DNA from: a phage
Reading direction: 5' to 3' (one strand)
DNA length: 64,000 nucleotides
Sequence record: PZ386957.1
Made by a program: the position numbers and the translations under genes. How positions within the stretch are numbered: position 1 is the first letter of the stretch; the number at the start of each line of letters is the position of its first letter. This document shows positions 5,037-56,178 of this stretch, piece by piece. The notes beneath the pieces are model-generated. The model was not told the DNA's origin, ran no database searches, and saw nothing but the letters and a program-made list of their open reading frames with translations.

Positions 5037-5531
5037 ATGGCACTTGATTTAAACGATATTACACGCGGCTTTGAATCAGGCGATTTTGCTCGTCCTAACC
5101 TGTTTGAAGTTGAGATCCCATATCTGGGTCAAAACTTTAAGCTGATGTGTAAAGCTGCTACAGTTCCGGCTGCTACCGTAGAAAAAATCGCGGTAGGCTT
5201 CCAAAACCGCAAGATTAACATTGCTGGCGACCGTGTATATGATGACTGGACTATTACGGTCTTCAACGACGATGCACACAAGATCCGTGATGCTATCGTC
5301 GCGTGGAACGCATTAACACACGGTACTGGTTCGGCAATCACTGGTTCTACCCCAGCACATTACAAAAAACAAGCTGTTCTCCGTCAGCTTAACCGTAACA
5401 CCGAAGCAACTAACGAAAAAACCCTCTATGGCATTTTCCCGCTTAATGTCGGTGAAGTTACTCTCGATTGGGATCAAAACAACGAAGTAGAAACCTTCGA
5501 GGTTACTTTCGCTATCGATTGGGTAGAATAA
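5037..5531 (+). CDS. 19: Tail tube protein
   Basis: 164 aa; collinear with T4 gp19 (FESGDFARPNLF, GFxNRKINxAGDR, TFEVTxAxDxxE). Confidence 0.95.
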   Translation: MALDLNDITRGFESGDFARPNLFEVEIPYLGQNFKLMCKAATVPAATVEKIAVGFQNRKINIAGDRVYDDWTITVFNDDAHKIRDAIVAWNALTHGTGSAITGSTPAHYKKQAVLRQLNRNTEATNEKTLYGIFPLNVGEVTLDWDQNNEVETFEVTFAIDWVE

Positions 5532-5543
5532 ATATATTATCAC

Positions 5544-11103: not shown

Positions 11104-11111
11104 TATAAATA
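11104..11111 (+). promoter_or_regulatory. T4-type late promoter TATAAATA upstream of the 23/24 insert module
   Basis: Exact TATAAATA 38 nt upstream of the ATG at 11149. Confidence 0.65.
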
Positions 11112-11148
11112 AGGATGCAAGCCTATATTCTAAGGGGAGCGAAAATAG

Positions 11149-11457
11149 ATGCACACACTTATAAAGACCAAAACTCCCGCCACGTCTGCACCAGTAAGCT
11201 GTATTCATAGTACGCATATGACTGTACAAATGACGGTAGAAGGTGTAAGGCAAGGGCAAAAAGTCATTGCAGAGGCTGTTTTAGAAGGTTCTCTGGATGG
11301 CAAAGGTTGGTTCACTATCTCAGAGTTGAAAGCAGATGGTAATGAATATGCAACTGACGGTGGAGCGTTTGAAACATTATGGTCATTTATTAGGGCGAAA
11401 GTAAAATCAATTTCTATTGATTCTACTGTCACAGTGTATCTTGCGAAACGGGGGTAA
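11149..11457 (+). CDS. Hypothetical protein (102 aa), first gene of the late insert module between 23 and 24
   Basis: ORF with GGGGAG RBS; no family recognised. Confidence 0.6.
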   Translation: MHTLIKTKTPATSAPVSCIHSTHMTVQMTVEGVRQGQKVIAEAVLEGSLDGKGWFTISELKADGNEYATDGGAFETLWSFIRAKVKSISIDSTVTVYLAKRG

Positions 11458-11460
11458 TAC

Positions 11461-13176
11461 ATGAAGCTGAATCCAGATGCAGTAATTAACGCTGGTTCCG
11501 TTGGTGGTGGCGGTTCCGGTGGTGGTATTCAGGTCGGTACTAATGTACCGTGTGGTATTCAGAATAATCACCGTTTCGAAAACGAGCAGGAACGAGACGC
11601 GTATTTTGCAACTAAATTCCCGGAACTGGAACGACTGAAAACAATTATTGTTTGCGGCGGTAAACTCCAGCTTTGGACTGGTGCAACTGCGCAATCACCT
11701 TATGATAATTCTAAATGGGTCGATATGACCTGGGTGATTCAGGGTGAACAAGGTACGGCAGGTGAAAAGGGTGATGCCGGAAGAGGCATTGCCAGAATTG
11801 AAGCACAAATCTCGCCGGATGATGCAAACTGGACACTTGAAATCACGTACTCTGATCAGACACAAGAAAGTCTCGTTTTCCCCGTACCGGATGTGTTGGC
11901 GAACGTAGCACAGCGTTTAACGGCGTTGGAAGTTCGATGGACGACTACCGGAAACCCTATTAACAATCTAGACGCAACATTACAACAAGGCCGTTACCCC
12001 GTAGATGTTACTACCTACGGTAAACCGCAAATGATGGCAAATAAGGGGTCTGTAGATGTATATGTCGTGGATAGTAGCGTTATTCAGGTTGTCCATTCTA
12101 TTGATGGTGGTGTGTACTCTCGCACGCGACACAATGGTAGTTGGACAGAGTGGGTATCTAAGGGATCTGGTGGTGGTTCCGGTGGTGGCTTAAATGGTGA
12201 TCAAGAAGCATTGCTCGCCAGCTTAGGTACACGTTTACCGGAAATTTCGCCAAATACCCGCGATCTAAACGCACTTCAACATCAAGGCCGTTTTTGCTAC
12301 GATGAACAATCCGCTAACCGTCCAAATGGTGTCATCACTCATGGGTCAGTAGATGTTCATGCTTGCAAAGACCATGTATTGCAAATCGCTACCAGTATTG
12401 AAGGGGTAATGTATCACAGGGCTTTAGACAAAGCAAATGGTACATGGAGTCAATGGACACAGATTAGTGATGCTACGGGAGGTGCTACCATCTATGCATT
12501 CCCTCGCGCGGCTAGTGTCTTTACGACTTCTCAGAGTCTGTTAGATGCAGCTAATCCCGGTGCTGGATTCTTTTATATTCCGTGGAAATATGTAATCCAT
12601 GATAACTATGGATGTACACCGCAGATTAAAGAGCCAAACAGACAAGCTGATGCTGATCACTGGTGGATTGCCCCGAAATCCGGTAGTTATGATATGGAAT
12701 TGATGCTTGATGTAAGTTTCATCAAGACACAAGCAACGATTCCGGTAATGCTGGTTGTTACTGCATGGCATCGTGACTCACAGGGTCATGAACACATGGC
12801 AGCACGTTACAATATGCCGTTAGATGTTACACAGAAAAACCAGAAAACGAAATCCGCTAAACTCCGACTTAATCAAATCTTGCACGGTGATATGGTCCGT
12901 TGGCAGGTTGAATTTACTGGAGGTAACTGGTCGCAGGATGACAACCCAGATGTTTCCTTTGTTCCTTTCCGAACAATGCTGATGGTCGATGAGGCAGAAT
13001 ACGACACAGCAAAACGGATCGGGCTATTGGCTTATAACACATGGGCTAATTTCCATGCTAAACCCGGTTTAGCTGCAACCGTAATTGAAGATCAGGGTAA
13101 AGCCCGTCTGAATGCGGTTAAATGGAATGTTGCAATTGATAGTATCGAGGCAACTGTACAACCAGGCCAGCCATAA
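11461..13176 (+). CDS. Fibrous protein with Gly-rich linkers, short collagen-like G-X-Y stretch and two knob-like repeats
   Basis: 571 aa; GGGGSGGG and GSGGGSGGG linkers; GEQGTAGEKGDAG; two ~70-aa repeats (LQQGRYPVD...GSVDVYVV...YSRTRHNGSWTEW and LQHQGRFCYD...GSVDVHAC...YHRALDKANGTWSQW) resembling tail-fibre knob domains. Confidence 0.8.
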   Translation: MKLNPDAVINAGSVGGGGSGGGIQVGTNVPCGIQNNHRFENEQERDAYFATKFPELERLKTIIVCGGKLQLWTGATAQSPYDNSKWVDMTWVIQGEQGTAGEKGDAGRGIARIEAQISPDDANWTLEITYSDQTQESLVFPVPDVLANVAQRLTALEVRWTTTGNPINNLDATLQQGRYPVDVTTYGKPQMMANKGSVDVYVVDSSVIQVVHSIDGGVYSRTRHNGSWTEWVSKGSGGGSGGGLNGDQEALLASLGTRLPEISPNTRDLNALQHQGRFCYDEQSANRPNGVITHGSVDVHACKDHVLQIATSIEGVMYHRALDKANGTWSQWTQISDATGGATIYAFPRAASVFTTSQSLLDAANPGAGFFYIPWKYVIHDNYGCTPQIKEPNRQADADHWWIAPKSGSYDMELMLDVSFIKTQATIPVMLVVTAWHRDSQGHEHMAARYNMPLDVTQKNQKTKSAKLRLNQILHGDMVRWQVEFTGGNWSQDDNPDVSFVPFRTMLMVDEAEYDTAKRIGLLAYNTWANFHAKPGLAATVIEDQGKARLNAVKWNVAIDSIEATVQPGQP

Positions 13177-13187
13177 GGGGGCGTTTA

Positions 13188-14114
13188 ATGGTTAGTGTAG
13201 AATCGAAAATCCGGCAATTACAAAACGGATTTGTTCAAGGCGAAATTACCCAGTTTACTGGTAATGAATCGAATGCTTTGATGGAAAGTGATGTTGAACG
13301 AATTTCTAATTCAATCAACACGGAACTAATCGATCCGGTTATTGATTTTGTTATTGCGTGCGATGACGTAATTTCAGAATCAGCGACGGAAGCACTTAAA
13401 GCGGCGGAAGCCGCTAAAAATCTTGCTGATGTAGCAGATGCCACGGCAGGGCAGTCTATGAGTAAAGCGACAGACGCGCTAGCTAAAGCAAATCATGCTG
13501 ATTCAGAAGCAACAAGGGCGCATGATCGATTAGATAAACTCAATATTCCACAAATCCCAAACTTAGACGGTCATACGTGGAATTGGCTACCGCGTTCATT
13601 TGACAGCGTATCAATTAAATTGGGTAACGGTGTTACATTAGCAGATGCGCAGCAAAAACCGCGTATTATATGGACACCAATTAGACAAAACTTTGAAACA
13701 GGTCGATATTATCTCGAAGGTAGATTTGAAGCCCGTTTTAAAGTCATGCTGATGGATTGGATTCAAACTCCCGGTTCGGGTGGTCATATTTTCTATTTGG
13801 GAGGTACTCAAAGTCTCGCATCATTTAACGGTAGGATTTATCCTCAAAACTTGTCAAATGATGTTATGAAACCTATGAGTATTCAGGTTAACGCATATTC
13901 CGCTAAAGATACCCAAATGATTTTCGGTGCTAGCGCCGATGCATCACTTTCTAATTCTCAGGAAGTGAAATTGGCTATTTTGGCAGATATTGGTTCAGAT
14001 AGATTCGACCGTTATGGCGATCCAGTTTATGTTGATTTGGTTATGACGTTCCAGCGTGACAGTGAAGGTAACTTTGGTTTTGGTAATAATTTATTCCCAT
14101 CTATTTCACCTTAA
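13188..14114 (+). CDS. Fibre-like protein, paralog A (shared N-terminal module with 14166-15521)
   Basis: 308 aa; N-terminal segment ISNSINTELIDPVIDFVIACDDVISE matches ISQTINDALIDPVVNFIAECDAVIVE in the next gene; Ala-rich helical region then distinct C-terminal domain. Confidence 0.75.
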   Translation: MVSVESKIRQLQNGFVQGEITQFTGNESNALMESDVERISNSINTELIDPVIDFVIACDDVISESATEALKAAEAAKNLADVADATAGQSMSKATDALAKANHADSEATRAHDRLDKLNIPQIPNLDGHTWNWLPRSFDSVSIKLGNGVTLADAQQKPRIIWTPIRQNFETGRYYLEGRFEARFKVMLMDWIQTPGSGGHIFYLGGTQSLASFNGRIYPQNLSNDVMKPMSIQVNAYSAKDTQMIFGASADASLSNSQEVKLAILADIGSDRFDRYGDPVYVDLVMTFQRDSEGNFGFGNNLFPSISP

Positions 14115-14124
14115 TTGTCAATTT

Positions 14125-14143
14125 TCGGGGCGCTATGCCCCGA
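14125..14143 (+). other. Hairpin TCGGGGCGCTATGCCCCGA between the two fibre paralogs
   Basis: 7-bp GC stem seen in sequence, no T-tract; lies between the stop at 14114 and the RBS of the gene starting at 14166. Confidence 0.4.
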
Positions 14144-14165
14144 TCTAATTACTGGAGAATGCTTT

Positions 14166-15521
14166 ATGCTAAGAAACCGTTTAAAAGCTGTACCGTCTTT
14201 TACTCCTGGCGAAATGGGTAACATCACCACACAAGATGAGCATTGCTTGATGGAACATGATATTCCTATCATTTCACAGACTATTAACGATGCTCTAATT
14301 GATCCGGTTGTTAATTTTATTGCGGAATGTGATGCCGTAATTGTTGAAGGTATGGGAACTATTGCCGATACCGTCGATATTATCGATAAAAAAGCCGATA
14401 ATGCAATTTCAATGGCACACTATGCTGATACTCGATCCGGTGAGGCTATGACTAAGGCAACCGAGGCCAAAACAATAGCAGACGAGAGCAAAGCAGAAAA
14501 TACCGCTTTAAAAGCCCGTATCGACACCATAGAGCCAGAAATCGGTGTAATTAATGGTAACGTAGCAGAAGCACAGAAAAACGCGTCAGACGCGCTCTCA
14601 AGCGTTTCTACGCTAAATCAGAAAGTAGACGAAGTAAAAACCGTCGCTGATAATGCAACCGTGGAGATCACTGGTATTAAACCACAAGTACAAAGTCTGG
14701 AATCCGTTGTATCAGATGCCTATAGTGGGATTGCTGTATTAAGCAAAGATGTAGAGAAATTAAAAACTGATGTACAGAGCGCAGATACAAAGGCCGCAAG
14801 CGCAGGAACTAAAGCAGGTGAGGTAGAGACACAACTCAATGCATTATCACCGCGCGTGGATACCGTAGAAAGCGATTTGGCACAAATGCAAACCACGGTC
14901 AACGGCATCAACGACAAAGTAAATGATACTACGGTTAAAGCAGATAATGCGGTAAGCAAAGCGACTGCGGCAGAGCAAAAAGTAGACTCGCTGGAGCCAA
15001 ATGTTCAAACCGCTACGCAGAATGCTGAAACAGCTTTGACAACGGCACAAGCGGCAAGTGGTGAAGCAGCAACCGCAAAAGCTAAAGCAGAAGATGCGGT
15101 CACTGAATCAGGTGAGGCTAAGTTATTGGCAGAAGAAGCCAACAATAAAGCAACCACAGCAGAATCTAATATCAATACTCTTACTAGTCGCGTTTCTACT
15201 CTGGAAACCGATAAAGTTAAGATCCAGCGTTTTACATTTATGGAAGACCGTCGAATCGGTGGCGGTGGTACAACTTTCCGACGTATTAACGTACCTGGCG
15301 TTAAAGTTGGTGATACAGCCACGTTACAAATGTATGAAGATTTTCAACACAAAAGCCTATTAATTTTGCAAGCTCATGTGATTGATGCTGATACTATCGT
15401 AACATCTGTATATAATTTGTCAACTTCCCCGATGAACATCGGCAAGAAAATGCTAGTTACTATAATTAGCTCAAATGATGTAATTACGCAGGATGTAGAG
15501 GCGGTTGTATCGTCCAACTAA
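14166..15521 (+). CDS. Fibre-like coiled-coil protein, paralog B
   Basis: 452 aa from ATG at 14166 (GGAG 8 nt upstream); track start at 14115 overlaps the hairpin. Long Ala/Thr/Lys/Glu-rich heptad-like region, small beta-rich C-terminal domain. Confidence 0.75.
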   Translation: MLRNRLKAVPSFTPGEMGNITTQDEHCLMEHDIPIISQTINDALIDPVVNFIAECDAVIVEGMGTIADTVDIIDKKADNAISMAHYADTRSGEAMTKATEAKTIADESKAENTALKARIDTIEPEIGVINGNVAEAQKNASDALSSVSTLNQKVDEVKTVADNATVEITGIKPQVQSLESVVSDAYSGIAVLSKDVEKLKTDVQSADTKAASAGTKAGEVETQLNALSPRVDTVESDLAQMQTTVNGINDKVNDTTVKADNAVSKATAAEQKVDSLEPNVQTATQNAETALTTAQAASGEAATAKAKAEDAVTESGEAKLLAEEANNKATTAESNINTLTSRVSTLETDKVKIQRFTFMEDRRIGGGGTTFRRINVPGVKVGDTATLQMYEDFQHKSLLILQAHVIDADTIVTSVYNLSTSPMNIGKKMLVTIISSNDVITQDVEAVVSSN

Positions 15522-19191: not shown

Positions 19192-20424
19192 TCACGCAGG
19201 AGGCGCTTCACGGATGCGTAGCACCCGCTCTAAGATCTCGCGATCAAGTTTGTGGAACTCTTTGGAATTGTACATGAAACCGTTTCGTGATTCCATGCAA
19301 ATGCAGTCGCTATATTTTTCTTCTGCCGCTGCAATCGTCTCCAGATCACGCGCGTATCGGCTTGTTTCATAAACATGACGTTCGCGCCATTCTAAACCAG
19401 CTTCATTGAATTTAACAATCTCATCGAATACCCACCAGCCTATATAAATGAAGGATGTTTTACGCCACGGGATCGGGTGAACATATCGCCACATTTTGTG
19501 TAGGGAATCAACAATGGTCATTGTGCATTTTCGGCTTTCCTGATAGGAAAGTTCTACTGTCGCACTACCAATAGTCTGGTAAAGTTTAGCGATACACCAG
19601 AAAGACGCATGATCATCATGTGTTGCTCGTTCTTTAAACAGATGACCATCTGGCATAATGGCAAACCCTTCTAATACCTCACCTACTTCTGTTCCAAGTA
19701 AAGTCGGTTTAGCTTGTCCTTCGCGTTGCAGATACCAATTATATTTGATTGTTAGTGCTGGCATACCGCTAGAATCGCCTACAACGTCCTCTGACACGCT
19801 AAACGGCAATAGAATCTCCTTACCTACAGCTACGATTTTTGACGCTGGTACATCGCTTTCTGTGCGCAATGATGCAAGCATTACTTTAACCGATGAACTA
19901 TCAGCCGATGCCTCATTTTCGCCCCATACTTTAACAGTATACACACCATTATCAGAATTGCTAAAATCCTGAATTGTTAAATTCTCTTGTATTCCTAAAT
20001 CTTCTCCACCTTTACTCCATTCATAATGGATCACGTATGAATCGGAAGGAGCTTTACCGCCTGAATATGAAACCTTAGTATGCAATACTACGTCAGTGTG
20101 AGTAGGAACATAGAAATGTGATGGTTCGGTGATCGTCACAACTAATGCTGTTTCGTCCATGCGAAGTGCATCGCTGGTTACTTCTTCGCCTGAATCGGTA
20201 TCACGCACCGTAATTTTATATGCACCTGCATTTGCGGCAGTGGCATTAGCAATGCTTAAAGTTGCTGTATCCCCTTCATGTGGTTTATTATCTTTTGTCC
20301 ATGTATAAGTCAGATTGCTGGGTAATGGATCGCCTCCAACCGCTTCAACCGTCGCAGTTAGTGTAAATGCATCACCAGGAAGAAAACATGCTTTATCTGA
20401 CTTGAGTTTAACAGTAAATGCCAT
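19192..20424 (-). CDS. hoc: Hoc-like outer capsid protein, short paralog (Ig-like domains + Hoc capsid-binding C-terminus)
   Basis: 410 aa; Ig-like repeats; C-terminal RYVHPIPWRKTSFIYIGWWVFDEI...ESRNG matches the T4 Hoc C-terminal domain (YVHPLP...GWWVMDEI...ESRNGY). Confidence 0.85.
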   Translation of the reverse strand: MAFTVKLKSDKACFLPGDAFTLTATVEAVGGDPLPSNLTYTWTKDNKPHEGDTATLSIANATAANAGAYKITVRDTDSGEEVTSDALRMDETALVVTITEPSHFYVPTHTDVVLHTKVSYSGGKAPSDSYVIHYEWSKGGEDLGIQENLTIQDFSNSDNGVYTVKVWGENEASADSSSVKVMLASLRTESDVPASKIVAVGKEILLPFSVSEDVVGDSSGMPALTIKYNWYLQREGQAKPTLLGTEVGEVLEGFAIMPDGHLFKERATHDDHASFWCIAKLYQTIGSATVELSYQESRKCTMTIVDSLHKMWRYVHPIPWRKTSFIYIGWWVFDEIVKFNEAGLEWRERHVYETSRYARDLETIAAAEEKYSDCICMESRNGFMYNSKEFHKLDREILERVLRIREAPPA

Positions 20425-20469: not shown

Positions 20470-23013
20470 TTAAAATAGTTGAGTACCATCAACCAGATAA
20501 CCGTTTCGGGATTCAAGAACATGCGTATTGCTATAATGATGCAGCGATGCCGCAATAGTCTCGACCTCGTCCGGGTAACGGGTATGTGTAAAGTCCTCTA
20601 ACCAGTTAAGACCTTCGCGGTTACAACGATCAATCTCATCCATTACCCAATACCCTTGATACTGGAAGGATGTACGTCGCCATGGGATCGGGTGTACATA
20701 TCGCTTAAGCTGTGCGGTAGTGAATACCACACGGATTTTTTCAGTATGAGCAACATGACCCGCGTCATCGGTGATCTCTGCGTAGTAAGTCGCCTGGTCT
20801 TTATCCTTGCTGATTTGATCTTTCGGGATGGTATAAGTTTTGTCATTCGCGCCCTGAATAACGCTATCTTTACCGCCCTGTACTTTATGCCACTTCCAGC
20901 TAACTACCTTATTCGGCGTGATATGTTCCGCGTCAGCCTTTAACACAATATCCTGATCCTGACCTTCTTTAGCCACCACATCCACTGGATGTTGAAGGAT
21001 ATTAATGTTAGTATGTGGATTCAGCACAATAACAGCCGGATTAGTTTCTAGAGTACGCTCTGCGGCAGTAACTACAGCCGTGTAAGTCCCCGCATCGGAT
21101 GGTTTAGCGTGATCAATTATCAGCACCTCATCATTAGCGCCCGGAATAATCTGACCATCTTTTTTCCACTGATACGATGGTTTAATGCCGATAGTGTTCG
21201 TCGCTTGCGCATGTAGCATAATCCGCTGGTTGTAGTTGACATTATTACTTTGCGGGTGAATCGTAATTTGTGTATCATTAGGAACTACAGTCGGATCATC
21301 GGTGATCAGTACGCGCACGGCATCGGACATTTTAGATACACGATGATCGCCAAAGCCAGCCGATACACGGCAAGTATAAACGCCAGTTGATGACAATTGC
21401 GCGTGATCTTCACCATATACATTTCGTTGTTCAATTCCGGTTGGGAATAAATCCTCACCATCTTTAAACCAACGGTAACGAACTGGCAAAGCATCATTCG
21501 ACGTTGCTGTAATGCTTAACGCCCACTGTCCACCGGAACGAATGCTAACCGCTTTTGGTTGTACCGTGATGTTTAGCGTAGATTTAGAATCATCTACGGT
21601 AACTTGAACAGGATTAGATTCTTTAGTGATTCGGTGGTTCTGAATACCCATAGAAACTACGCACTTATACTGTCCTTCGTCGGCTTTTGTGATCGCGGAG
21701 AAATGTAGCGCATTAGACGTTTTACCCGGCAACAATTCATTATCTTTATACCACTGATAAACAAGTTTATAATGCTCGTAGTCAGTGGTCGCCTGACAAA
21801 TCAATGATTGAGCGGAACTAACACGAACATTAGTTAACTGCTGCGGTTGCTGTGTGATTCGAATTTCAGGCGCAGCACCGACCAGCAAACTTGCTTCTTC
21901 TGTGTCTACTGTTATATTATCACCGTAGGTCAATTTGGCTTTATATTTCGCCTGATTATATTCCTGAGTAGCCGGAATAATATGCAACTCGTTATTAACC
22001 GCACCAACAATCGGTTTAAATTCAGGATCGCCGTTTTTCTGGACATACCATTGAATTTTTACCGGAGAATAGTTGGTTGCATATTCAACGCGGAATAAGC
22101 CAAGAGCACCAGCGCCCACATTAAGTGTCTGTGGTTGCTGAATAATACGGAAGAAAGCATGATCACTGATGATCACATTACAATCTTTCGAATATACGGT
22201 AGTCTCTGCTTGTCGAACTTCCATTCGCCAGATTCCCGCGTCTGCTTTAGTAACATGGGTAATAATCAGCGATTGACCGTTTTGATCCGGTACAATCTTG
22301 CCGTTATGAATCCACACATACTCAATCGGGCGAGTAGTATCATCTGACACCACATGAGCGACTAACTCCAGTCGACCATCTTCTGGAATAGTTACAGACG
22401 ACTCGTATTGTTCAGTAATATGAACTTTCGGTGCATCGGTGTTTTGTTCCACGACTACCGGTTCGATCCAATAGTGAGAACGTGCATCATCCTGTACAAA
22501 TACTTTACAAGTGTAGTTACCAAAATCCTCATAACCTACACGATCAACGTGTACGGAAATGTTATTACGAATCTTACTCGGATCTAGTAATACATGGTTT
22601 TTATACCAGATATAAGCCGCATTATGATTATCTTCGATAAACGGGGTAGCGAAAATATCCAGTGATTCACCTAAACGCTTGTAAATGTACGTCGGAGATT
22701 GGTCTTGTGGAGCAATAAAGATTCGACGTTCAACAAGGATTGGTTTAATATCCACATATTCCTGCGGATTTTCTTTGAGTTTTACACGCGCGGTGTAAGT
22801 ACCGAACTGCTGATCTGTCATTTCTGCAATATACAGAGATTGATCTGGTTCGGTAACTTGTTCCGCTGGTACACTCTGCCCGTTTAGCTTCCATTCTACA
22901 ATATAGTCTTTAAAATCTGCGACACTAACAACCAGTCGCAAAACCAATTCATGACCTACTGATGCATAAACCGGACCTACTGTTTGATGTAAGATATTGA
23001 TTTTATCAGACAT
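20470..23013 (-). CDS. hoc: Hoc-like outer capsid protein, long paralog (~8 Ig-like domains)
   Basis: 847 aa from ATG at 23013 (AGAGGA RBS); repeated ~90-aa Ig-like units; C-terminus KRYVHPIPWRRTSFQYQGYWVMDEI...ESRNGYLV as in Hoc. Confidence 0.85.
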   Translation of the reverse strand: MSDKINILHQTVGPVYASVGHELVLRLVVSVADFKDYIVEWKLNGQSVPAEQVTEPDQSLYIAEMTDQQFGTYTARVKLKENPQEYVDIKPILVERRIFIAPQDQSPTYIYKRLGESLDIFATPFIEDNHNAAYIWYKNHVLLDPSKIRNNISVHVDRVGYEDFGNYTCKVFVQDDARSHYWIEPVVVEQNTDAPKVHITEQYESSVTIPEDGRLELVAHVVSDDTTRPIEYVWIHNGKIVPDQNGQSLIITHVTKADAGIWRMEVRQAETTVYSKDCNVIISDHAFFRIIQQPQTLNVGAGALGLFRVEYATNYSPVKIQWYVQKNGDPEFKPIVGAVNNELHIIPATQEYNQAKYKAKLTYGDNITVDTEEASLLVGAAPEIRITQQPQQLTNVRVSSAQSLICQATTDYEHYKLVYQWYKDNELLPGKTSNALHFSAITKADEGQYKCVVSMGIQNHRITKESNPVQVTVDDSKSTLNITVQPKAVSIRSGGQWALSITATSNDALPVRYRWFKDGEDLFPTGIEQRNVYGEDHAQLSSTGVYTCRVSAGFGDHRVSKMSDAVRVLITDDPTVVPNDTQITIHPQSNNVNYNQRIMLHAQATNTIGIKPSYQWKKDGQIIPGANDEVLIIDHAKPSDAGTYTAVVTAAERTLETNPAVIVLNPHTNINILQHPVDVVAKEGQDQDIVLKADAEHITPNKVVSWKWHKVQGGKDSVIQGANDKTYTIPKDQISKDKDQATYYAEITDDAGHVAHTEKIRVVFTTAQLKRYVHPIPWRRTSFQYQGYWVMDEIDRCNREGLNWLEDFTHTRYPDEVETIAASLHHYSNTHVLESRNGYLVDGTQLF

Positions 23014-23090
23014 TTGATATCCTCTTTTTAATTGCATAACGGAACTACAATTAAAATCATAACAAATATTTCACATCTACACTCTCAATA

Positions 23091-23804
23091 TTACTTGAGT
23101 GTGTGGAATTGGCTATGTTTAGTCTCGCGTACCTTGACAGATCCATCACGCTTGATATAATAGATCAGTGATTTAAGGGTATCATGGACATACACATGCG
23201 GGAAACGTTCTGGGTGTTTCTTCCAGTCTGGGGTATTCTGAATCCAGTCGAAGATCCACCATGGGCAAGTGTAATAGCCACGACCGCCACCAATCAAGCT
23301 AATGGTAGGACGAAATCCAGTGAGATCGCAGAGTGTTTCGGAATCAGGAATACCACGATGTTCTGCCTCATCTGAGAAGATGTTAGCGACCGGAGATTCT
23401 TTAACTTCCGGCAATTCTACATTGATTTCGACGTGTTCCGGTTCCGGCTTGACTTCTTCTACGATTTCAATTACAGTAGGCTGTTCTTCCGGTTCTTTCA
23501 TTGCTTCAACCAATGCCGGACGTGCTTCGTCAAATACAACTTTATCTTCTGCGGTATCAGCCGCAATAATCAGATCGGTAATACTGGTTCCTTCTGCTGG
23601 AGTTTCATTATTCATTTCAGATGCCATATTATTGAGTTCTGATTCTACGTTGGTGATCATGGTTTCCAGCGACCAAGTTTTTTTCACCTTAATGTCAAAT
23701 TGTTTTGCGTAATCTGCTAATTCTGCTTTAGCTGTCTTCTGGGCTTCCTTATCGTCAGAAGCCGCGATCAAGCGGAGTTCTTCAAAGTATTCTTTATCAA
23801 ACAT
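23091..23804 (-). CDS. inh: Putative Inh-like head protein (assigned by synteny only)
   Basis: 237 aa from ATG at 23804 (AGGAG RBS); position between hoc and uvsW as T4 inh; acidic central region. Confidence 0.5.
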   Translation of the reverse strand: MFDKEYFEELRLIAASDDKEAQKTAKAELADYAKQFDIKVKKTWSLETMITNVESELNNMASEMNNETPAEGTSITDLIIAADTAEDKVVFDEARPALVEAMKEPEEQPTVIEIVEEVKPEPEHVEINVELPEVKESPVANIFSDEAEHRGIPDSETLCDLTGFRPTISLIGGGRGYYTCPWWIFDWIQNTPDWKKHPERFPHVYVHDTLKSLIYYIKRDGSVKVRETKHSQFHTLK

Positions 23805-23833: not shown

Positions 23834-23841
23834 TATAAATA
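23834..23841 (+). promoter_or_regulatory. T4-type late promoter TATAAATA upstream of uvsW
   Basis: Exact TATAAATA 36 nt upstream of the uvsW ATG. Confidence 0.65.
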
Positions 23842-23876
23842 TTGTATATTGTATTTATTGAGTGAGGCTGTTCGCT

Positions 23877-25379
23877 ATGCAGGATATTAAAATTCACTTT
23901 ATTAATTATTCGCATGTTCAAATTGAATGTAGCGATTCAATTCTAATGGAAATGCGAGAATATTTTAGTTTTGAAGTTGAGGGAGCACAGTTCCAAAAAC
24001 GTGTGAAATACGGATCTTGGGATGGGCGTATTCGTCTTTTAGACTACAACGGAAAGTTGCCTATTGGCCTAACAAAAACCGTCGGTATCTTCGCTAAAAA
24101 TATGGGCTATAGCGTATGGGTAGACCCTCGCTTATTCGAAAAAGAACAAGTTACAGAAGAAGAAATTACAAAATGGTGTAATGACTTAGAATTATATTCC
24201 GGTGCTAACAGGATCACCCCGCACTGGTATCAATCAAAGGCAGTCTTTGAAGGTATTCATCATAAACGTAGAATGCTTGTTCTTCCAACGTCTGCGGGTA
24301 AGTCTGCGATTGCTTGTATGTTGTCTCGTTGGTACTTAGAGAACTACGAGGGAAAAGTGTTGATCATTGTCCCGACCACATCTCTTGTTCTCCAGATGCG
24401 TGATGACTTTGTTGATTATCGCCAGTTTCCTTATGAAGCAATTCACACTATCATGAGCGGTACTAGTAAACACGTAGGTGATCGCCTGATCGTTGTTAGT
24501 ACGTGGCAATCAGCATGTAAACAGCCTCGTGAGTGGTTCCAGCAATTTGGGATGGTGATTGTTGATGAATGTCATCGTGCTACCGCCAAAAACCTGCTGA
24601 ACATCGTTACTGACATGGACCACTGTCAATTTAAGATCGGTATGACTGGTTCCCCGCGAGATGGAAAGGCTAACATGATGCAATATGTCGGGTTGTTCGG
24701 TGATATTTCTAAGATTGTTAGTATTGACCGCTTAATGGAAGATGGACAGGTTACAAAGCTGAAAATTAACTGTCTATTCCTTCGATATACCGACGAGGAA
24801 TGTGCTGCTGTTAAAGGACGAGATTATGCCGAAGAGATCAAATACATCACCTCACATGGGCGACGAAATAAGTTTGTATGTAATTTGGCGCTAAAACTCG
24901 CTAGAAAGAACGAAAACGTCTTCCTGATGTTCCGCAATACCAAGCATGGAAAAATGATGTATGAAGCCTTACAGAAGGTACACGATAAGGTTTACTACAT
25001 TGACGGTGGCGTTAAAACCACCGAACGTGATGAATTTAAGAAATTAGCGGAAGGTGAAACAGGGATCATTTGTGTTGCATCCTATGGTGTGTTTTCTACT
25101 GGTGTTTCTATCAAGAACTTGCATCATGTAATTTTTGGTCATCCTGTAAAAGAATCCACTATCGTTAGACAGAGTATCGGGCGATCATTGCGTAAACATG
25201 GTTCTAAGGATATTGCGACCGTCTGGGATGTTGTTGATCACCTTGCTATTAAAACAAAGAGCAAGACCGCTAAGAAACAATTCAGCCACCTGAATTACGC
25301 GCTTAAACACTCGTTAGAACGCATCCGTGTTTATGGGGAAGATCGATTCGAGTACGTGACCAAAACAATTGAGATTTAA
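23877..25379 (+). CDS. uvsW: UvsW RNA-DNA/DNA helicase
   Basis: 500 aa from ATG at 23877 (MQDIKIHF; GAGG RBS); collinear with T4 UvsW (NLPTSAGKS, IIVPTT, DECH, GxSGSxRDGKANIMQYVG, VASYGVFSTG). Confidence 0.93.
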   Translation: MQDIKIHFINYSHVQIECSDSILMEMREYFSFEVEGAQFQKRVKYGSWDGRIRLLDYNGKLPIGLTKTVGIFAKNMGYSVWVDPRLFEKEQVTEEEITKWCNDLELYSGANRITPHWYQSKAVFEGIHHKRRMLVLPTSAGKSAIACMLSRWYLENYEGKVLIIVPTTSLVLQMRDDFVDYRQFPYEAIHTIMSGTSKHVGDRLIVVSTWQSACKQPREWFQQFGMVIVDECHRATAKNLLNIVTDMDHCQFKIGMTGSPRDGKANMMQYVGLFGDISKIVSIDRLMEDGQVTKLKINCLFLRYTDEECAAVKGRDYAEEIKYITSHGRRNKFVCNLALKLARKNENVFLMFRNTKHGKMMYEALQKVHDKVYYIDGGVKTTERDEFKKLAEGETGIICVASYGVFSTGVSIKNLHHVIFGHPVKESTIVRQSIGRSLRKHGSKDIATVWDVVDHLAIKTKSKTAKKQFSHLNYALKHSLERIRVYGEDRFEYVTKTIEI

Positions 25380-27380: not shown

Positions 27381-27421
27381 AGTATACACCTCTTATAGTA
27401 CATAGAAATTATTTAGTATTT

Positions 27422-27429
27422 TATAAATA
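27422..27429 (+). promoter_or_regulatory. T4-type late promoter TATAAATA upstream of gene 51-like ORF
   Basis: Exact TATAAATA 21 nt upstream of the ATG at 27450. Confidence 0.65.
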
Positions 27430-33519: not shown

Positions 33520-34032
33520 TTATTTGATTAGATCATCACATTGCTTACGTAGTTTATATTTGTATTCTTTAGAACGTAGCATTTGTACTTTTTCATAATC
33601 TCCTTCCTGAAATGCAGACGAGAGATCATCTTGATATGCTGCCTCCGTTCCAATAACACACATACCAAATTTACGACGTTGATCCGCTTCTTCCATAGCT
33701 TTGCGGTTCATTTCTTCAATTGAATTTTCACGACCATAATAATATTCGTAAATGCGTTTCTTCTCTGCTTCTTTATCGGCTTTAATCTTTGCGATCTGTT
33801 CTGCTGATTCCGGCTGACGGCCTAAACGCTGTAATGCCGCATCTTTCTTTTCAAGATAGTTAATCACGCAATCTTCAACACTATTGAATGGAAAACGTGG
33901 TTCTTGCTGCCATCGTGCACATGAGCGTGCAAACTCTTGTGTATTCTTAGATGCAAGTGCCAGGTCATGCACAGCGCACCCATTAAGCATAGCCACTAAA
34001 GCCGCAAGACCAATCAGTTTAATCATTTTCAT
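33520..34032 (-). CDS. Putative lipoprotein (signal peptide + lipobox LNGC)
   Basis: 170 aa; N-terminus MKMIKLIGLAALVAMLNGC; start overlaps upstream stop (ATGA). Confidence 0.6.
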   Translation of the reverse strand: MKMIKLIGLAALVAMLNGCAVHDLALASKNTQEFARSCARWQQEPRFPFNSVEDCVINYLEKKDAALQRLGRQPESAEQIAKIKADKEAEKKRIYEYYYGRENSIEEMNRKAMEEADQRRKFGMCVIGTEAAYQDDLSSAFQEGDYEKVQMLRSKEYKYKLRKQCDDLIK

Positions 34033-34853
34033 TTAGTCACCTCACCGAAAATTGTAAATTGTCTACGATTCTCATCACCGAAAGATTCTACTACGTCGTT
34101 TACCTTGATGCAAGTCCCACGCGGTAAAATTACTTCACATTCGCAAGGGTTCCATGCAATCGACCCAACAACAAAACCTTTATGATCTTTTACATCAATC
34201 ACCCACGAAACATTACAAGAATGTTGCATCTTTCCGGTCATTGATTCATATCGATTTTCGCAATAAAGGCTAGTGCTATTTGAAAGCCAGCCTCCAAAGA
34301 TGATCGGTGTCATGCTGGTAGATACAAAGTTTTTAAAGGTAAATTCCTTATCTTCAATAATACGCTCTATTGTCTGAATGTCAAGATGTTGACCGCGATA
34401 AAGAGTACCGTTTAACTTTTCGGTTTTATCCATGACACAATCCATCAAATCAACCATTTCTGATATTTCGTCGGTCATGTCTTCTTCCCCTAAGAGAGCA
34501 CCATTTACCCATTCGTAATGCTCGGAGATATAATCGCAGATCGCATCATACTCGGCTGGGGTAAGATTGGTGTGTCCATAATGTTTGAATACACTATCTC
34601 CGAAGTCTTCGGATTGTACTTCGTACATGACATTAATGATCTTCTTGACAAATCCATAATCTTGTGTTTCTCGCTCAAGAAAACGGATAACCTTAACGTA
34701 ATCATCAAAGTTAATATGATCGCTGATCATCTCAGTGATCATGTAACCATTAATACCCTCAATGTCATATGTTTCAATATAATTGTCCATACGTTCCATC
34801 ATGGTTTCGCGTGCTTCTTCTGAAAGACGAAAACCCTGTAATTGTTTGAACAT
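34029..34853 (-). CDS. ADP-ribosyltransferase (Alt/Mod-like, R-S-ExE signature)
   Basis: 274 aa; LYRGQ (Arg), FVSTSM (STS), CECEVILPRG (ExE) aligned with the same motifs in the adjacent Alt; GGGAGG RBS. Confidence 0.75.
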   Translation of the reverse strand: MFKQLQGFRLSEEARETMMERMDNYIETYDIEGINGYMITEMISDHINFDDYVKVIRFLERETQDYGFVKKIINVMYEVQSEDFGDSVFKHYGHTNLTPAEYDAICDYISEHYEWVNGALLGEEDMTDEISEMVDLMDCVMDKTEKLNGTLYRGQHLDIQTIERIIEDKEFTFKNFVSTSMTPIIFGGWLSNSTSLYCENRYESMTGKMQHSCNVSWVIDVKDHKGFVVGSIAWNPCECEVILPRGTCIKVNDVVESFGDENRRQFTIFGEVTK

Positions 34854-34931: not shown

Positions 34932-36983
34932 TTACATTTTAAATTTATCTGGCATTGCGTCTACAGATACCAGATCAGCAATAAGCTGGCGTAGAGTTGC
35001 TTTGTCTGCTTTCTTGCGTTCTGTCTTAGCTTCGGTAATAAAGCTGGAGAAAGACAGGTCAGAAGCAGGTTTAACAACACCTTCACGGATGAATGCATCA
35101 CCGTCCGCGATCATCTCGCCAGATTCTTGTAATGCTGCCAGTTCATTTTTGGTCATAATATGTGCCTCAATGTAATAAGTTTCTTGTGAATCCGTCGATG
35201 CCGTAGCACGAGTTACCGTATCAAAGGATAACACAACACCGCGAGGAAGTAAAATCTCGCATTCTTTGTAAGCAAATGCTTTGTTACCTACTGGCAATAC
35301 AGGGATGTTTTCCGCGCCAGCAATGGAGAAAGCAACATTAGCGCCACCTTCACCGCGAGATCCAGCCATAGAATCAACACCAGCAACGGCACTAGCCACG
35401 TTTGCATTCCAGCCACCAAAGATATTAGGTGCAAGGGATGTGCTCACATAGTTTTTAAAGTAAAACGCTTTTTGCTTACGTGCAGTTTCCCACATTTGCG
35501 ACCGGAAGTCCATACCACGATACAGAATAGTACCCGGATCAAGTTTAACTCCATAGTTAGCGAAGGCATTATCCAGTGCATCACACATCTTGACCAATTC
35601 TTCTGGATCTGCTACACCTTCAAACTCTTCCAGTTTTCGATCTGTCAGGAAGTTGTTCATGTTAATGTATGCTGCATCGGCGTATTCGCTTAATACAAAA
35701 CCTTCCGCACCTGGTAGGTCAAGATCAATATCTGCCATCATTTCACCCATGTTGCTAGCAATTGCTTCAAACATACCGGAAGCAACATTACGCAGGGCAT
35801 CGGTTTTAATCTGGGTGATATGACTACGCAGCATTTCAGCTTTTATGTCTGCTGGCATAGCCGGATCTACTCGGTCCATTGCAAGGGCAGTGATCTTGTT
35901 TTCGAATACTTCCTCGCTCATGATTTCTTTTAAGCGTTTAATTGATGCCGCGATAACTTCCGCAGACAACGGATCATATTGGTCCTGAACTTTTACCAGT
36001 TCACTTACTGCGTATTTTGCATCGGCTTCGCTTTCAAAGATAGTACGCATAAAGCCATAGCGAGTGATAATATCACTTGTCCAGTCATTCAAAGAACGGG
36101 CGGTTGAACGTTCTAAGGCTTGACGATCGATCAGAGTATTAAACTGTTTCTTCGGTTCCGCTTCGGTAATGTCTTCTTCCGGTTTAAGATTAATTTTTTC
36201 TGGATGATTGACATAATCACCGTTATATGTCGCTTGAGTTTTCAGCATTTCTTCTTTAGTCAAACGAGATTTAGCCGCTACGCGTTGTTCCGCTTCCGCG
36301 TTTCGTTCTTCTTCTGCTGCAAGGCTAGCCGCATATGCTTCATCTTTAGTAAGAGATTCGCCAGTAGCTTTAGATACCCAGCGATCACCTAAATCACTTT
36401 CTACTTTAGTGAACAAGGACTCATCCAGTTTAATCCCTTTAATCTTATCAATCGCCATCCCTCGACGCTTGACAACAACTAAAGCGATCTTTTTGCTGGT
36501 CATTACTTCCTGCTGGAATACTTCAAACTTCGGAGTACGACGCACTAAACGCTCTATAACTCGTTTAACCAGTTCGGTCTTGCCTTTCATACGGGAAACA
36601 TTAAAACGGAACATAACAGCGTCTAATTGAGCTTTACGGGCGGTTTCCATCACCACATCAAAAGCACTTGCCATAACAGCAATCGGGTTATCGCCTAGAC
36701 CATTTTTAAGCTGTACAATTCGACCGCTTTTATTCATCTCACACAGGACCACATGCGCGGTTTTATCACCCACGCGAATAATTTTAGGTGTTTTGTTGGT
36801 GAAGTTGCAAAGACGAACAATCACATCTTTATCGCGTGTCTGTACTGCAAAAAGCTGTTTTGGGTTCTGCTTCGGCTTTAGGCACTGTACAGGGGCAATG
36901 CTACCAAAGTTTTCTTCCTCTTCTGTTAACAGCCATTTCTCAAAAGATTCAATCATTAGATCGTCGATTTCTAAGTTAAACAT
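34932..36983 (-). CDS. alt: Alt-like ADP-ribosyltransferase
   Basis: 683 aa (T4 Alt is of similar size); C-terminal ART motifs ILYRGMD, YVSTSL, KECEILLPRG; synteny downstream of DNA ligase. Confidence 0.85.
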   Translation of the reverse strand: MFNLEIDDLMIESFEKWLLTEEEENFGSIAPVQCLKPKQNPKQLFAVQTRDKDVIVRLCNFTNKTPKIIRVGDKTAHVVLCEMNKSGRIVQLKNGLGDNPIAVMASAFDVVMETARKAQLDAVMFRFNVSRMKGKTELVKRVIERLVRRTPKFEVFQQEVMTSKKIALVVVKRRGMAIDKIKGIKLDESLFTKVESDLGDRWVSKATGESLTKDEAYAASLAAEEERNAEAEQRVAAKSRLTKEEMLKTQATYNGDYVNHPEKINLKPEEDITEAEPKKQFNTLIDRQALERSTARSLNDWTSDIITRYGFMRTIFESEADAKYAVSELVKVQDQYDPLSAEVIAASIKRLKEIMSEEVFENKITALAMDRVDPAMPADIKAEMLRSHITQIKTDALRNVASGMFEAIASNMGEMMADIDLDLPGAEGFVLSEYADAAYINMNNFLTDRKLEEFEGVADPEELVKMCDALDNAFANYGVKLDPGTILYRGMDFRSQMWETARKQKAFYFKNYVSTSLAPNIFGGWNANVASAVAGVDSMAGSRGEGGANVAFSIAGAENIPVLPVGNKAFAYKECEILLPRGVVLSFDTVTRATASTDSQETYYIEAHIMTKNELAALQESGEMIADGDAFIREGVVKPASDLSFSSFITEAKTERKKADKATLRQLIADLVSVDAMPDKFKM

Positions 36984-37029
36984 TTTATATCCTCTAGTTG
37001 ATAACCTATAAACCTATATTTATGAAAAA

Positions 37030-37044
37030 GGGGCTTTACGCCCC
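37030..37044 (-). terminator. Terminator after small early gene
   Basis: GGGGC-GTAAA-GCCCC followed by TTTTTC on minus strand. Confidence 0.6.
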
Positions 37045-37045
37045 A

Positions 37046-37225
37046 TTAAAACATCTTAGAAATTAATTCTGCTTTGATTTCGCAGAGAACATCTAAAGAT
37101 TTCTCGTCACCTGCTTTTGCTGCTTCTGCTTGCATTTTTGAAATGGCTTCGAGGTCGGTGCAATTATAAGCCGCCTGAACTTTAGCGATTGCGATGATTG
37201 CAGATTCGATTGTTAAGTGTTTCAT
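37046..37225 (-). CDS. Small early protein (59 aa)
   Basis: ATG with AGGAGA RBS 34 nt downstream of a perfect TTGACA-17-TATAAT promoter; MKHLTIESAIIAIAKVQAAYN... Confidence 0.65.
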   Translation of the reverse strand: MKHLTIESAIIAIAKVQAAYNCTDLEAISKMQAEAAKAGDEKSLDVLCEIKAELISKMF

Positions 37226-37257: not shown

Positions 37258-37286
37258 ATTATAGGGGATCGGTGATCCCCTGTCAA
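37258..37286 (-). promoter_or_regulatory. Early promoter cassette TTGACA-17-TATAAT with palindromic spacer GGGGATCACCGATCCCC
   Basis: Perfect -35 and -10 hexamers; spacer is a palindrome containing two GATC sites. Confidence 0.8.
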
Positions 37287-46935: not shown

Positions 46936-47256
46936 TTATTTATAAATTTCGACGATCTGCGCTGGAGCCAATCCGTCTACGTGAATCAGTGTATCAAGCC
47001 CGAAGCTACGAAAACCTTCAACTGCAATTTCATATACTGGCAAAGATGTTTCTGATTCTTTACGCGGTTTTTCAACATTCGGAACTAACCATTTTTCGTA
47101 TGTTTCAAATGGCATCAATGCTGGATCGCGAGTAGCAATCATATCTCGGACAGTACCATCTTTCTTAGTAAACTGTAAAGCGTGAGTACCTACCGAAAAC
47201 ATTTTCTTTAGTGCTTCACGAAGTACGATATTATCAATTTGTTCAATCATTATCAA
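46936..47256 (-). CDS. Hypothetical protein (106 aa)
   Basis: ORF between cd and gene 31. Confidence 0.6.
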   Translation of the reverse strand: MIMIEQIDNIVLREALKKMFSVGTHALQFTKKDGTVRDMIATRDPALMPFETYEKWLVPNVEKPRKESETSLPVYEIAVEGFRSFGLDTLIHVDGLAPAQIVEIYK

Positions 47257-55140: not shown

Positions 55141-56178
55141 TTACAGTTTGCAAGATGAACATTCGCTAGCGTCTTCCGTACCATCAGCACCATCACGAAC
55201 GTTAGCGTAATACAGTGTCTTGAGGCCGTAATATTGAGCAAACAGCATATCATCTAACACATCAACAATATCGACTTTACCAGTCTTATAAGTGCTTGGA
55301 TCGTAGGATGTATTGGAACTAATCGCCTGGTCTACAAACTTCTGCATGATCGCTGCCAGTGTCAGATAAGGCTTGTTACCTTTCTTGATCAGTGTCCAAA
55401 GCAGGTCAATAACATCAGCATTATTCTCTACGTTCGGAATAACCTGATTAAATTGTCCTTCCTTTGATCCTTTAACCGATACAATCCCGCGAGGCGGTTC
55501 AATACCATTTGTGCTGTTAGATACCTGAGAAGACGACTCACAAGGCATCAGCGCCGAAAGCGTACTGTTACGAATGCCATATTTTTTCAGGTCTTCGCGC
55601 AGTTCTTCCCAATCCATCTCATACACCGGATCAACCAGTTCATCTACTGTCTTTTTGTACCAGTCGATAGGCAGTTCACCGCGTCCATAACGTGTTTCGT
55701 GCATCAGTTCGCAAGCACCCTTCTCTTTAGCCAGTTGCACACTAGCCTTAATCAGAGCATATTGCAAGCGTTCAAACGTTTTATGCGTAAACTCGTTAGC
55801 GTCTTCATATGTGAAGAAATTATCCGCCAAATATGATGCAAAGTTAGTCACACCAACACCCAGAGAGCGACGTTTTTTGGCTGTCAGAGCTTGTTCTACA
55901 GGATAATCCTGATAATCTAACAGGTTGTCAAGTGCACGCACCATAACCATAGCAATGCGTTCTACTTCTTCCATGTTTTCGATATCGAAATTACCTAAAA
56001 CATAGGCAGCTAAGGTGCATAGTCCCACCTCGGCGTCTTCTTTCCCCATCGGAGAAGTGGGGAGTGTAATTTCCATGCAGTTATGTACTAAAATATCATT
56101 AGCGAAGAAAGAATGTGTATCTTCTACGGTAATGTCGTAAACCGGAATTTCAATCTCAATATATTCAATCTCAACCAT
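55141..56178 (-). CDS. nrdA: nrdA C-terminal fragment: split-intein C-half fused to NrdA C-terminal part (from catalytic Cys)
   Basis: 345 aa; first 33 aa MVEIEYIEIEIPVYDITVEDTHSFFANDILVHN are intein blocks F/G, followed by CMEITLPTSP...LCTLAA (compare E. coli NrdA SNLCLEIALPT...ALCTL). Confidence 0.85.
   Translation of the reverse strand: MVEIEYIEIEIPVYDITVEDTHSFFANDILVHNCMEITLPTSPMGKEDAEVGLCTLAAYVLGNFDIENMEEVERIAMVMVRALDNLLDYQDYPVEQALTAKKRRSLGVGVTNFASYLADNFFTYEDANEFTHKTFERLQYALIKASVQLAKEKGACELMHETRYGRGELPIDWYKKTVDELVDPVYEMDWEELREDLKKYGIRNSTLSALMPCESSSQVSNSTNGIEPPRGIVSVKGSKEGQFNQVIPNVENNADVIDLLWTLIKKGNKPYLTLAAIMQKFVDQAISSNTSYDPSTYKTGKVDIVDVLDDMLFAQYYGLKTLYYANVRDGADGTEDASECSSCKL
56080..56178 (-). 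mobile_element. Split intein C-terminal half (IntC, 33 aa)
   Basis: Ends FFANDILVHN followed by Cys, as in known phage-type split inteins. Confidence 0.8.

Follow-up and report, generated by a model that had tools for sequence, protein, structure and literature searches.

A conserved C-variant box upstream of alt in an RB49-like phage, probably a late promoter of the gp55 type

The alt locus

The DNA analysed here is a 64,000-nucleotide stretch of phage sequence (PZ386957.1, referred to as the window), which belongs to an RB49-like Krischvirus (about 94% identity). On its minus strand, the interval between a 59-aa ORF and alt reads, in this order, as the stop codon of the ORF, the stem-loop GGGGCgtaaaGCCCC (37044..37030), TTTTT directly after it (37029..37025), the octamer CATAAATA, 33 nt containing GAGGA, and the ATG of alt. 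The features of the locus are as follows.

37258..37286, minus strand: early sigma-70 promoter, TTGACA-17-TATAAT with 12 of 12 matches in a consensus scan, which drives the 59-aa ORF
37046..37225, minus strand: 59-aa early ORF, without a Pfam match, orthologue of RB49p186
37025..37044, minus strand: intrinsic terminator by terminator scoring, stem-loop GGGGC-GTAAA-GCCCC (37044..37030) followed by T5 (37029..37025)
37017..37024, minus strand: CATAAATA, proposed -10-like element (-13 to -6) of a gp55-type late promoter, from sequence and conservation
37009..37014, minus strand: predicted late transcription start zone, with a nominal +1 at 37011, the sixth base past the box, and purines nearby, by T4 numbering (PMC1524935, PMC2988020)
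36984..37016, minus strand: 33-nt segment from box to ATG, with the Shine-Dalgarno sequence GAGGA at 36994..36990, from sequence
34932..36983, minus strand: alt, encoding a 683-aa ADP-ribosyltransferase (Pfam ADPrib_exo_Tox), orthologue of RB49 and T4 alt

An earlier note on this DNA had pointed to a late-promoter-like variant box about 30 nt before the alt start codon. We find CATAAATA at 37024..37017 (minus strand), with its last base exactly 33 nt from the ATG (36983..36981), and the span 36984-37025 covered by that note corresponds to the box and its leader. The box matches the canonical TATAAATA at seven of eight positions; the ATAAATA core is intact, and the sole deviation is a C for T at -13. 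Directly 3' of the box, TAGGTTTATAGGTTAT is A+T in 12 of 16 positions (75%), though with GG within the first 6 nt, and thus provides the A+T-rich downstream segment described for promoters of this type (PMC2988020). The G+C-rich stem-loop and T-run of an intrinsic terminator are found at 37044..37025 only, a site that carries a terminator annotation in several Krischvirus records. Because the box lies outside this interval, the terminator is a neighbour of the box and not an explanation of it.

By consensus scan, no sigma-70-type promoter (TTGACA, 16-18-nt spacer, TATAAT) was found from 37044 to 36984, and the only strong one near alt is that at 37286..37258, upstream of the 59-aa ORF. Nor does TGCTT, the mark of a MotA-dependent middle promoter, occur in 37060..36984 on the minus strand; for some of the five genomes of their study, Nolan et al. 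(PMC1524935) identified no homologue of MotA. The A/T-rich segment does contain several TATA-like hexamers (CATAAA, TAAATA and TATAGG), any of which might act as the -10 of a weak host sigma-70 promoter that transcribes alt early or constitutively. However, the segment has neither a -35 element nor a TG extension, the candidate hexamers lack the critical final T, and the genuine early promoters of this phage are near-perfect TTGACA-17-TATAAT sequences, so that we regard a sigma-70 promoter at this site as extremely improbable.

Further features of the locus are recorded here as observations in their own right. The 59-aa ORF occupies the slot of T4 alt.1, a correspondence of position only, with no homology to alt.1 implied. 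The spacer GGGGATCaccGATCCCC of the early promoter at 37258..37286 can fold as a stem-loop. A cassette of a promoter and a 70-aa ORF, present between the 59-aa ORF and alt in every listed Krischvirus match, is absent from the window; it amounts to about 290 extra nt in each listed match (read directly in RB49 and two IMG/VR contigs), and, as judged from the sequences, a cassette seems to have been gained or lost between promoter modules that are repeated (RB49 L001 4263-4335). Just 3' of alt lies a second ADP-ribosyltransferase gene (274 aa, 34029-34853, minus strand; ADPrib_exo_Tox, E = 4e-15). A sigma-70-like promoter of its own (TTGACT-17-TATACT) and the lack of a late box make its product probably an early enzyme, unlike Alt.

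Late-promoter-like boxes elsewhere in the window

Raw counts of the octamers gave no evidence for promoters. In the window, CATAAATA occurs three times against 5.3 expected from shuffled sequences, and is thus not over-represented, and TATAAATA eight times against 6.5; with no enrichment over the shuffles, counts were set aside and a placement test was used instead. For this test, 94 genes were called crudely, and the zone 15-60 nt upstream of each start, in the sense orientation, was taken as the place of a promoter; between 6.9 and 9.6% of composition-matched 8-mers fall into this zone. All eight copies of TATAAATA did so (P about 8e-9), as did two of the three copies of CATAAATA (P = 0.014) and, by automatic count, three of the four copies of AATAAATA. 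The third CATAAATA (57094-57101, plus strand) lies antisense inside the HNH coding sequence described below and is probably a chance occurrence, and the AATAAATA at 25378, which sits upstream of a terminator, is probably not a promoter.

The exact TATAAATA boxes stand 20-42 nt before the starts of genes 18, 22, 23, 24, uvsW, 51, an inserted four-ORF block and a 107-aa minus-strand gene. The earlier note had counted six on the plus strand where there are seven, together with one on the minus strand (46944..46937). Its statement that every plus-strand late gene with a recognisable promoter uses the exact box needs a small correction, as A(-13) AATAAATA precedes gene 20 and also inh. The copy at 5527-5534 (plus strand) lies 53 nt before gene 20 with a hairpin in between, and that at 23852-23859 (minus strand) precedes inh (ATG 23804) by 47 nt and is divergent from the TATAAATA of uvsW at 23834. 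From their sequences, both are likely to be A(-13) late promoters, conserved in RB49.

At a third site, ACTAAATA (27410-27417, minus strand; also present in RB49) lies 29 nt before the ATG of gene 26 (27380), back-to-back with the TATAAATA of gene 51 (27422-27429, plus strand). It resembles the late consensus of the Aeh1 type, with a/gC at -13/-12; read in this way, it would have C at -12, one of the bases that gp55 inserts into a pocket in T4. In IME08, PEi20 and DLP2, the gene 26/51 site has exact TATAAATA on both strands. We also note two differences from RB49. First, the four ORFs (102, 571, 308 and 468 aa) between genes 23 and 24 (11104-15521, plus strand) stand behind the exact TATAAATA at 11104, and the last two (308 and 468 aa) are coiled-coil or alanine-zipper-like; RB49 has the promoter there, only about 500 nt, and none of the four ORFs. 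Second, an 855-aa ORF (20470-23037, minus strand) lies between hoc (19192-20424) and inh (about 23094-23804), where RB49 has only a 65-aa ORF.

The remaining copy of the C variant belongs to the disrupted nrdA gene.

57149..57156, minus strand: second CATAAATA, 33 nt before the ATG of the HNH gene (57115), in the loop of a hairpin (57167..57119)

This agrees with the earlier note, which had reported the same variant in a hairpin loop upstream of the nrdA HNH gene. The gene behind it encodes a 314-aa HNH endonuclease, and the hairpin (AACTCCTTGTG / CACAAGGAGTT; dG -24 kcal/mol, z = -5.8) holds the Shine-Dalgarno sequence AAGGAG in its 3' arm. Late promoters inside hairpins that mask a ribosome-binding site are known for I-TevI, segB, Aeh1 mobE and fractured-gene endonucleases; in such an arrangement, transcripts that read through mask the site, and only those started by the late promoter within the hairpin are translated (PMC2988022; PMC2677866). 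The second CATAAATA (57156..57149) has exactly the same design, and by this analogy would be a case of the C variant in use at a place expected to have a late promoter. The closest homologue of the HNH protein (49% aa identity) is in Yersinia phage TG1, in which nrdA is likewise split and the loop of the homologous hairpin carries the canonical TATAAATA.

The nrdA locus itself (55141-58788, minus strand) has the layout of a 'fractured gene'. Its N-part (57181-58788) ends in an N-intein and is followed by the free-standing HNH gene (56171-57115), the 3' end of which overlaps the next gene by 8 nt, and by a last piece made up of a C-intein and the NrdA C-part (55141-56178), the Pfam intein matches being below the curated cut-off. 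The layout agrees with that described by Dassa et al. 2009 (PMC2677866), but the enzyme is of the HNH type. The insertion (roughly 1.4 kb) is absent from all 59 other Krischvirus records, in which nrdA is contiguous.

Conservation of the alt box

The 2 kb around the alt box matched 59 phage records at 90-95% identity, all of them RB49-like Krischvirus coliphages. A 47-nt segment consisting of TTT, the box, the leader and the ATG is 100% identical in 59 of 59 records. With a 58-nt query that extends into the T-run, the 59 records split 35 to 24 by one mismatch, which in RB49, read directly, lies inside the T-run and outside the box. The window and RB49 agree at every position of the 47 nt and differ at 40 positions of the 553 nt behind them, for the most part third positions of codons. 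The T-run, the hairpin and the upstream gene content vary among the Krischvirus records, and the box and leader are constant; RB49, for example, has the same box and leader, an extra 70-aa gene upstream and the hairpin GGGGGCgttaaGCCCCC. The RB49 box (114483) is the only NATAAATA on either strand in 110.5-118.7 kb of that genome. The invariance of the 47 nt could partly reflect functions of the leader or of translation and not of a promoter alone.

The feature tables of the 59 public Krischvirus records contain no promoter annotation at the alt box. Similarly, the late promoters predicted for RB49 with a hidden Markov model (HMM; 17 sites, PMC1524935 supplement) include no entry at RB49 114483. 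The plus-strand entries of that list agree with the current RB49 record. Its top-scoring prediction, Pl:112065 (minus strand, score 15.9; Nolan et al. 2006 supplement, PMC1524935), maps inside RB49p183 (NC_005066 112023-112065; L001 1565-1607), where there is no TATAAATA-like sequence, a mismatch that may be a coordinate error in the published table. This entry could not be reconciled with the current record and was given no weight in either direction; the lack of one at 114483 counts against the alt box.

The regions upstream of alt were also compared in 15 further lineages of Straboviridae, with two IMG/VR Klebsiella-type contigs counted together with K65. These relatives were sampled by tblastn on a phage collection, and a scan of IMG/VR with the N terminus of Alt gave only four loci. 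In 13 of the 15 lineages, ATAAATA occurs at the alt slot (as NATAAATA), 20-34 nt before the annotated start, and in most of these the box follows directly after a GGCCttcgGGCC-type hairpin and a T-run. MAFFT had set the Krischvirus box 2 nt off (TAAATATA against TATAAATA), and the register was fixed by eye. The base at -13 is distributed as follows.

T, eight lineages: T4, two other Tequatrovirus, a Klebsiella phage group, Karamvirus, Gelderlandvirus, Tegunavirus and Moonvirus
C, three lineages in addition to Krischvirus: Dhakavirus IME08, Kanagawavirus PEi20 and Lazarusvirus DLP2
G, one lineage: Roskildevirus FBB1
A, one lineage: one Acinetobacter phage

The other two of the 15 lineages showed no box; one is an Aeromonas phage (TTTAAATA), and in the other the hit was to a second, tandem copy of alt. 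Since ATAAATA is present in 13 of 15 lineages while the base before it varies, the heptamer is fixed at the alt slot, and position -13 is free.

Candidate boxes in the upstream zone were also collected from 50 kb of late genes in each of IME08, PEi20 and DLP2, and are overwhelmingly T at -13 (11-13 in each genome). C boxes in these regions precede alt in all three and the gene 15 orthologue in PEi20 and DLP2, the DLP2 gene 15 box resting on the crude gene caller. C(-13) is thus a minority form, at about 3 of 51 non-alt candidate boxes (about 6%) in four genomes, and its excess at alt is marginal (Fisher P = 0.04, or 0.11 with Dhakavirus and Kanagawavirus counted as one event). The view that the C variant is unusual holds only in part, since -13 is the most variable position and C recurs at alt in Dhakavirus, Kanagawavirus and Lazarusvirus.

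The same comparisons bear on whether CATAAATA and the 33 nt behind it are part of an RNA or terminator element (a translation initiation region, a processing site or terminator context) and not a promoter. The box abuts the T-run of the terminator, all 47 nt are invariant and not the box alone, and the leader core ACTAGAGGATAT has a counterpart in T4, as such an element would predict. Across genera, however, the leader varies in sequence and in length (20-34 nt) while ATAAATA is fixed, and the Lazarusvirus box falls within the 3' end of gene 54 and has no terminator beside it. Further, the motif is a known gp55 element, and the folding of 36975-37060 is unremarkable (z = -1.4), for which reason a structural RNA reading of the alt leader was dropped. 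We consider an RNA or terminator role in place of a promoter very unlikely.

It is also improbable, if slightly less so, that the box is a decayed and essentially inactive relic, with alt transcribed by read-through of the terminator, from early transcripts or from distant late promoters. A relic would be expected to drift, whereas the box and leader are identical in 59 genomes in which neighbouring sequence varies, and ATAAATA is kept at the alt slot in distant genera. As for distant late promoters, the nearest other NATAAATA upstream on the same strand of the window is the TATAAATA at 46944, about 10 kb away, and the same C variant lies in the HNH hairpin device, which is sensible only as an active late promoter. 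What speaks for decay is that C(-13) departs from a consensus whose variants are of unmeasured strength (PMC2988020), that the terminator has only five G-C pairs and may leak, and that the alt box is missing from the published RB49 list.

A probable late promoter for alt and its known counterparts

Overall, we conclude that the CATAAATA at 37024..37017 on the minus strand is very probably the T4-type late promoter of alt. It is in the sense orientation, a few tens of nucleotides before a gene placed in the late class through orthology with T4 alt only, and promoters of this type require no -35 element. The proposal of the earlier note, a variant late promoter for alt, draws support from the equivalent slot in T4 and T6, the invariance in 59 Krischvirus genomes, the recurrence of ATAAATA across genera (NATAAATA in 13 of 15 other lineages) and the lack of a sigma-70 site from 37044 to 36984. 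From its sequence and conservation, the box is almost certainly real, conserved and unannotated, but an ordinary gp55-type late promoter of a known kind.

With regard to timing, T4 alt RNA is detected from 7 min and the protein from 8 min, after gp33, gp45 and gp55 (PMC9697503), and, by orthology, this agrees with the expectation of the earlier note that Alt is made late. We infer the following course for gp55 dependence, start point and timing in the window phage. Early in infection, the sigma-70 promoter at 37286..37258 would transcribe the 59-aa ORF, and transcription would stop at the terminator at 37044..37025, which would insulate alt from early transcription and so leave little alt mRNA at that stage. 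The reader of the late promoter would be the host RNA polymerase carrying the sigma-like gp55, helped by gp33 and the gp45 sliding clamp. After the onset of replication, this polymerase would open the DNA at the box and start about 6 nt downstream, around 37011. The resulting leader, roughly 26-31 nt long, would leave the GAGGA ribosome-binding site accessible, and late synthesis of Alt would follow in time for packaging into heads; T4 Alt is a late, head-packaged protein.

The T4 late promoter lacks a -35 element and is made up of an 8-bp TATA box roughly one turn of the helix ahead of the start, and of 50 that have been listed, 32 are perfect, nine have A(-13) and the others show single deviations (PMC2988020). 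Variants are used in vitro and some are tied to 5' ends in vivo, with their relative strengths unmeasured (PMC2988020). Position -13 is the most variable of T4-type late promoters (PMC2988020; PMC1524935), and Nolan et al. noted little conservation of T(-13) in RB49 and further phages of the T4 type (PMC1524935). The bases that gp55 flips into pockets in the open complex seen by cryo-EM are -12, -9 and -8, and -13 is not among them (PMC7892883), a placement that would fit tolerance at -13. In our reading, the C, which stands at the upstream margin of the element, is a deviation that the promoter tolerates and that may lower its strength somewhat.

A stronger proposal would be that C(-13) has been selected and marks an attenuated class of late promoter, used where a late product is needed in few copies or could do harm. 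If true, this class would cover Alt, an enzyme packaged in low copy, as well as the gene 15 orthologue and the homing endonuclease, and would explain why C recurs at alt in four distant genera although only about 6% of the other candidate boxes in those genomes have it. We think such a class unlikely. Two separate orthologous comparisons nevertheless provide natural pairs with C in the window phage and T in the relative, as read from the sequences, namely alt (T4 against Krischvirus) and the nrdA HNH gene (TG1 against the window phage), and these could be used to gauge the contribution of -13 to the strength of gp55 promoters. The value of the alt box is mainly for annotation, and the understanding of T4-type late transcription is unchanged: in scans for exact TATAAATA, true late promoters of the kind seen at alt and the HNH gene go unnoticed, and a scan for NATAAATA combined with a position filter recovers both.

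Among known promoters, the closest counterpart is that of alt in T4 and T6, to which the window box is orthologous by position. In T4, the order is the alt.1 stop codon, the hairpin AGGCCttcgGGCCT, TTAATTT, TATAAATA, 28 nt and the ATG of alt; the T6 GenBank record X69894 annotates the box as 'T6 late promoter', and the record of Tequatrovirus Lutter likewise annotates the 8-bp alt box as a promoter. The window shares with T4 and T6 the GC-rich hairpin, the T-run, the 8-bp box, a leader of about 30 nt, a GAGGA-type Shine-Dalgarno sequence and the alt ATG, and its leader core ACTAGAGGATAT resembles the T4 core ACTAGAGAGGATATG. It differs in having C and not T at -13, in a leader of 33 and not 28 nt, and in the upstream gene, since T4 has alt.1, co-transcribed with gene 30, and the window an unrelated early ORF of 59 aa under a promoter of its own. 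In comparison with the hairpin promoters of the I-TevI, segB and mobE type, the alt box has no such hairpin, and an upstream terminator takes the place of translational masking. Among the top-ranked papers of a full-text literature search for CATAAATA, none was relevant. With its ATAAATA intact, the box resembles the sites of the T4 family that lack T(-13), such as the nine A(-13) promoters of T4 and the mixture of A and T in RB49, KVP40 and S-PM2; the usual alternative at -13 in the literature consulted is A, whereas here we find C, which precedes alt in four genera, gene 15 in two phages (PEi20 and DLP2) and, in the window, the HNH gene.
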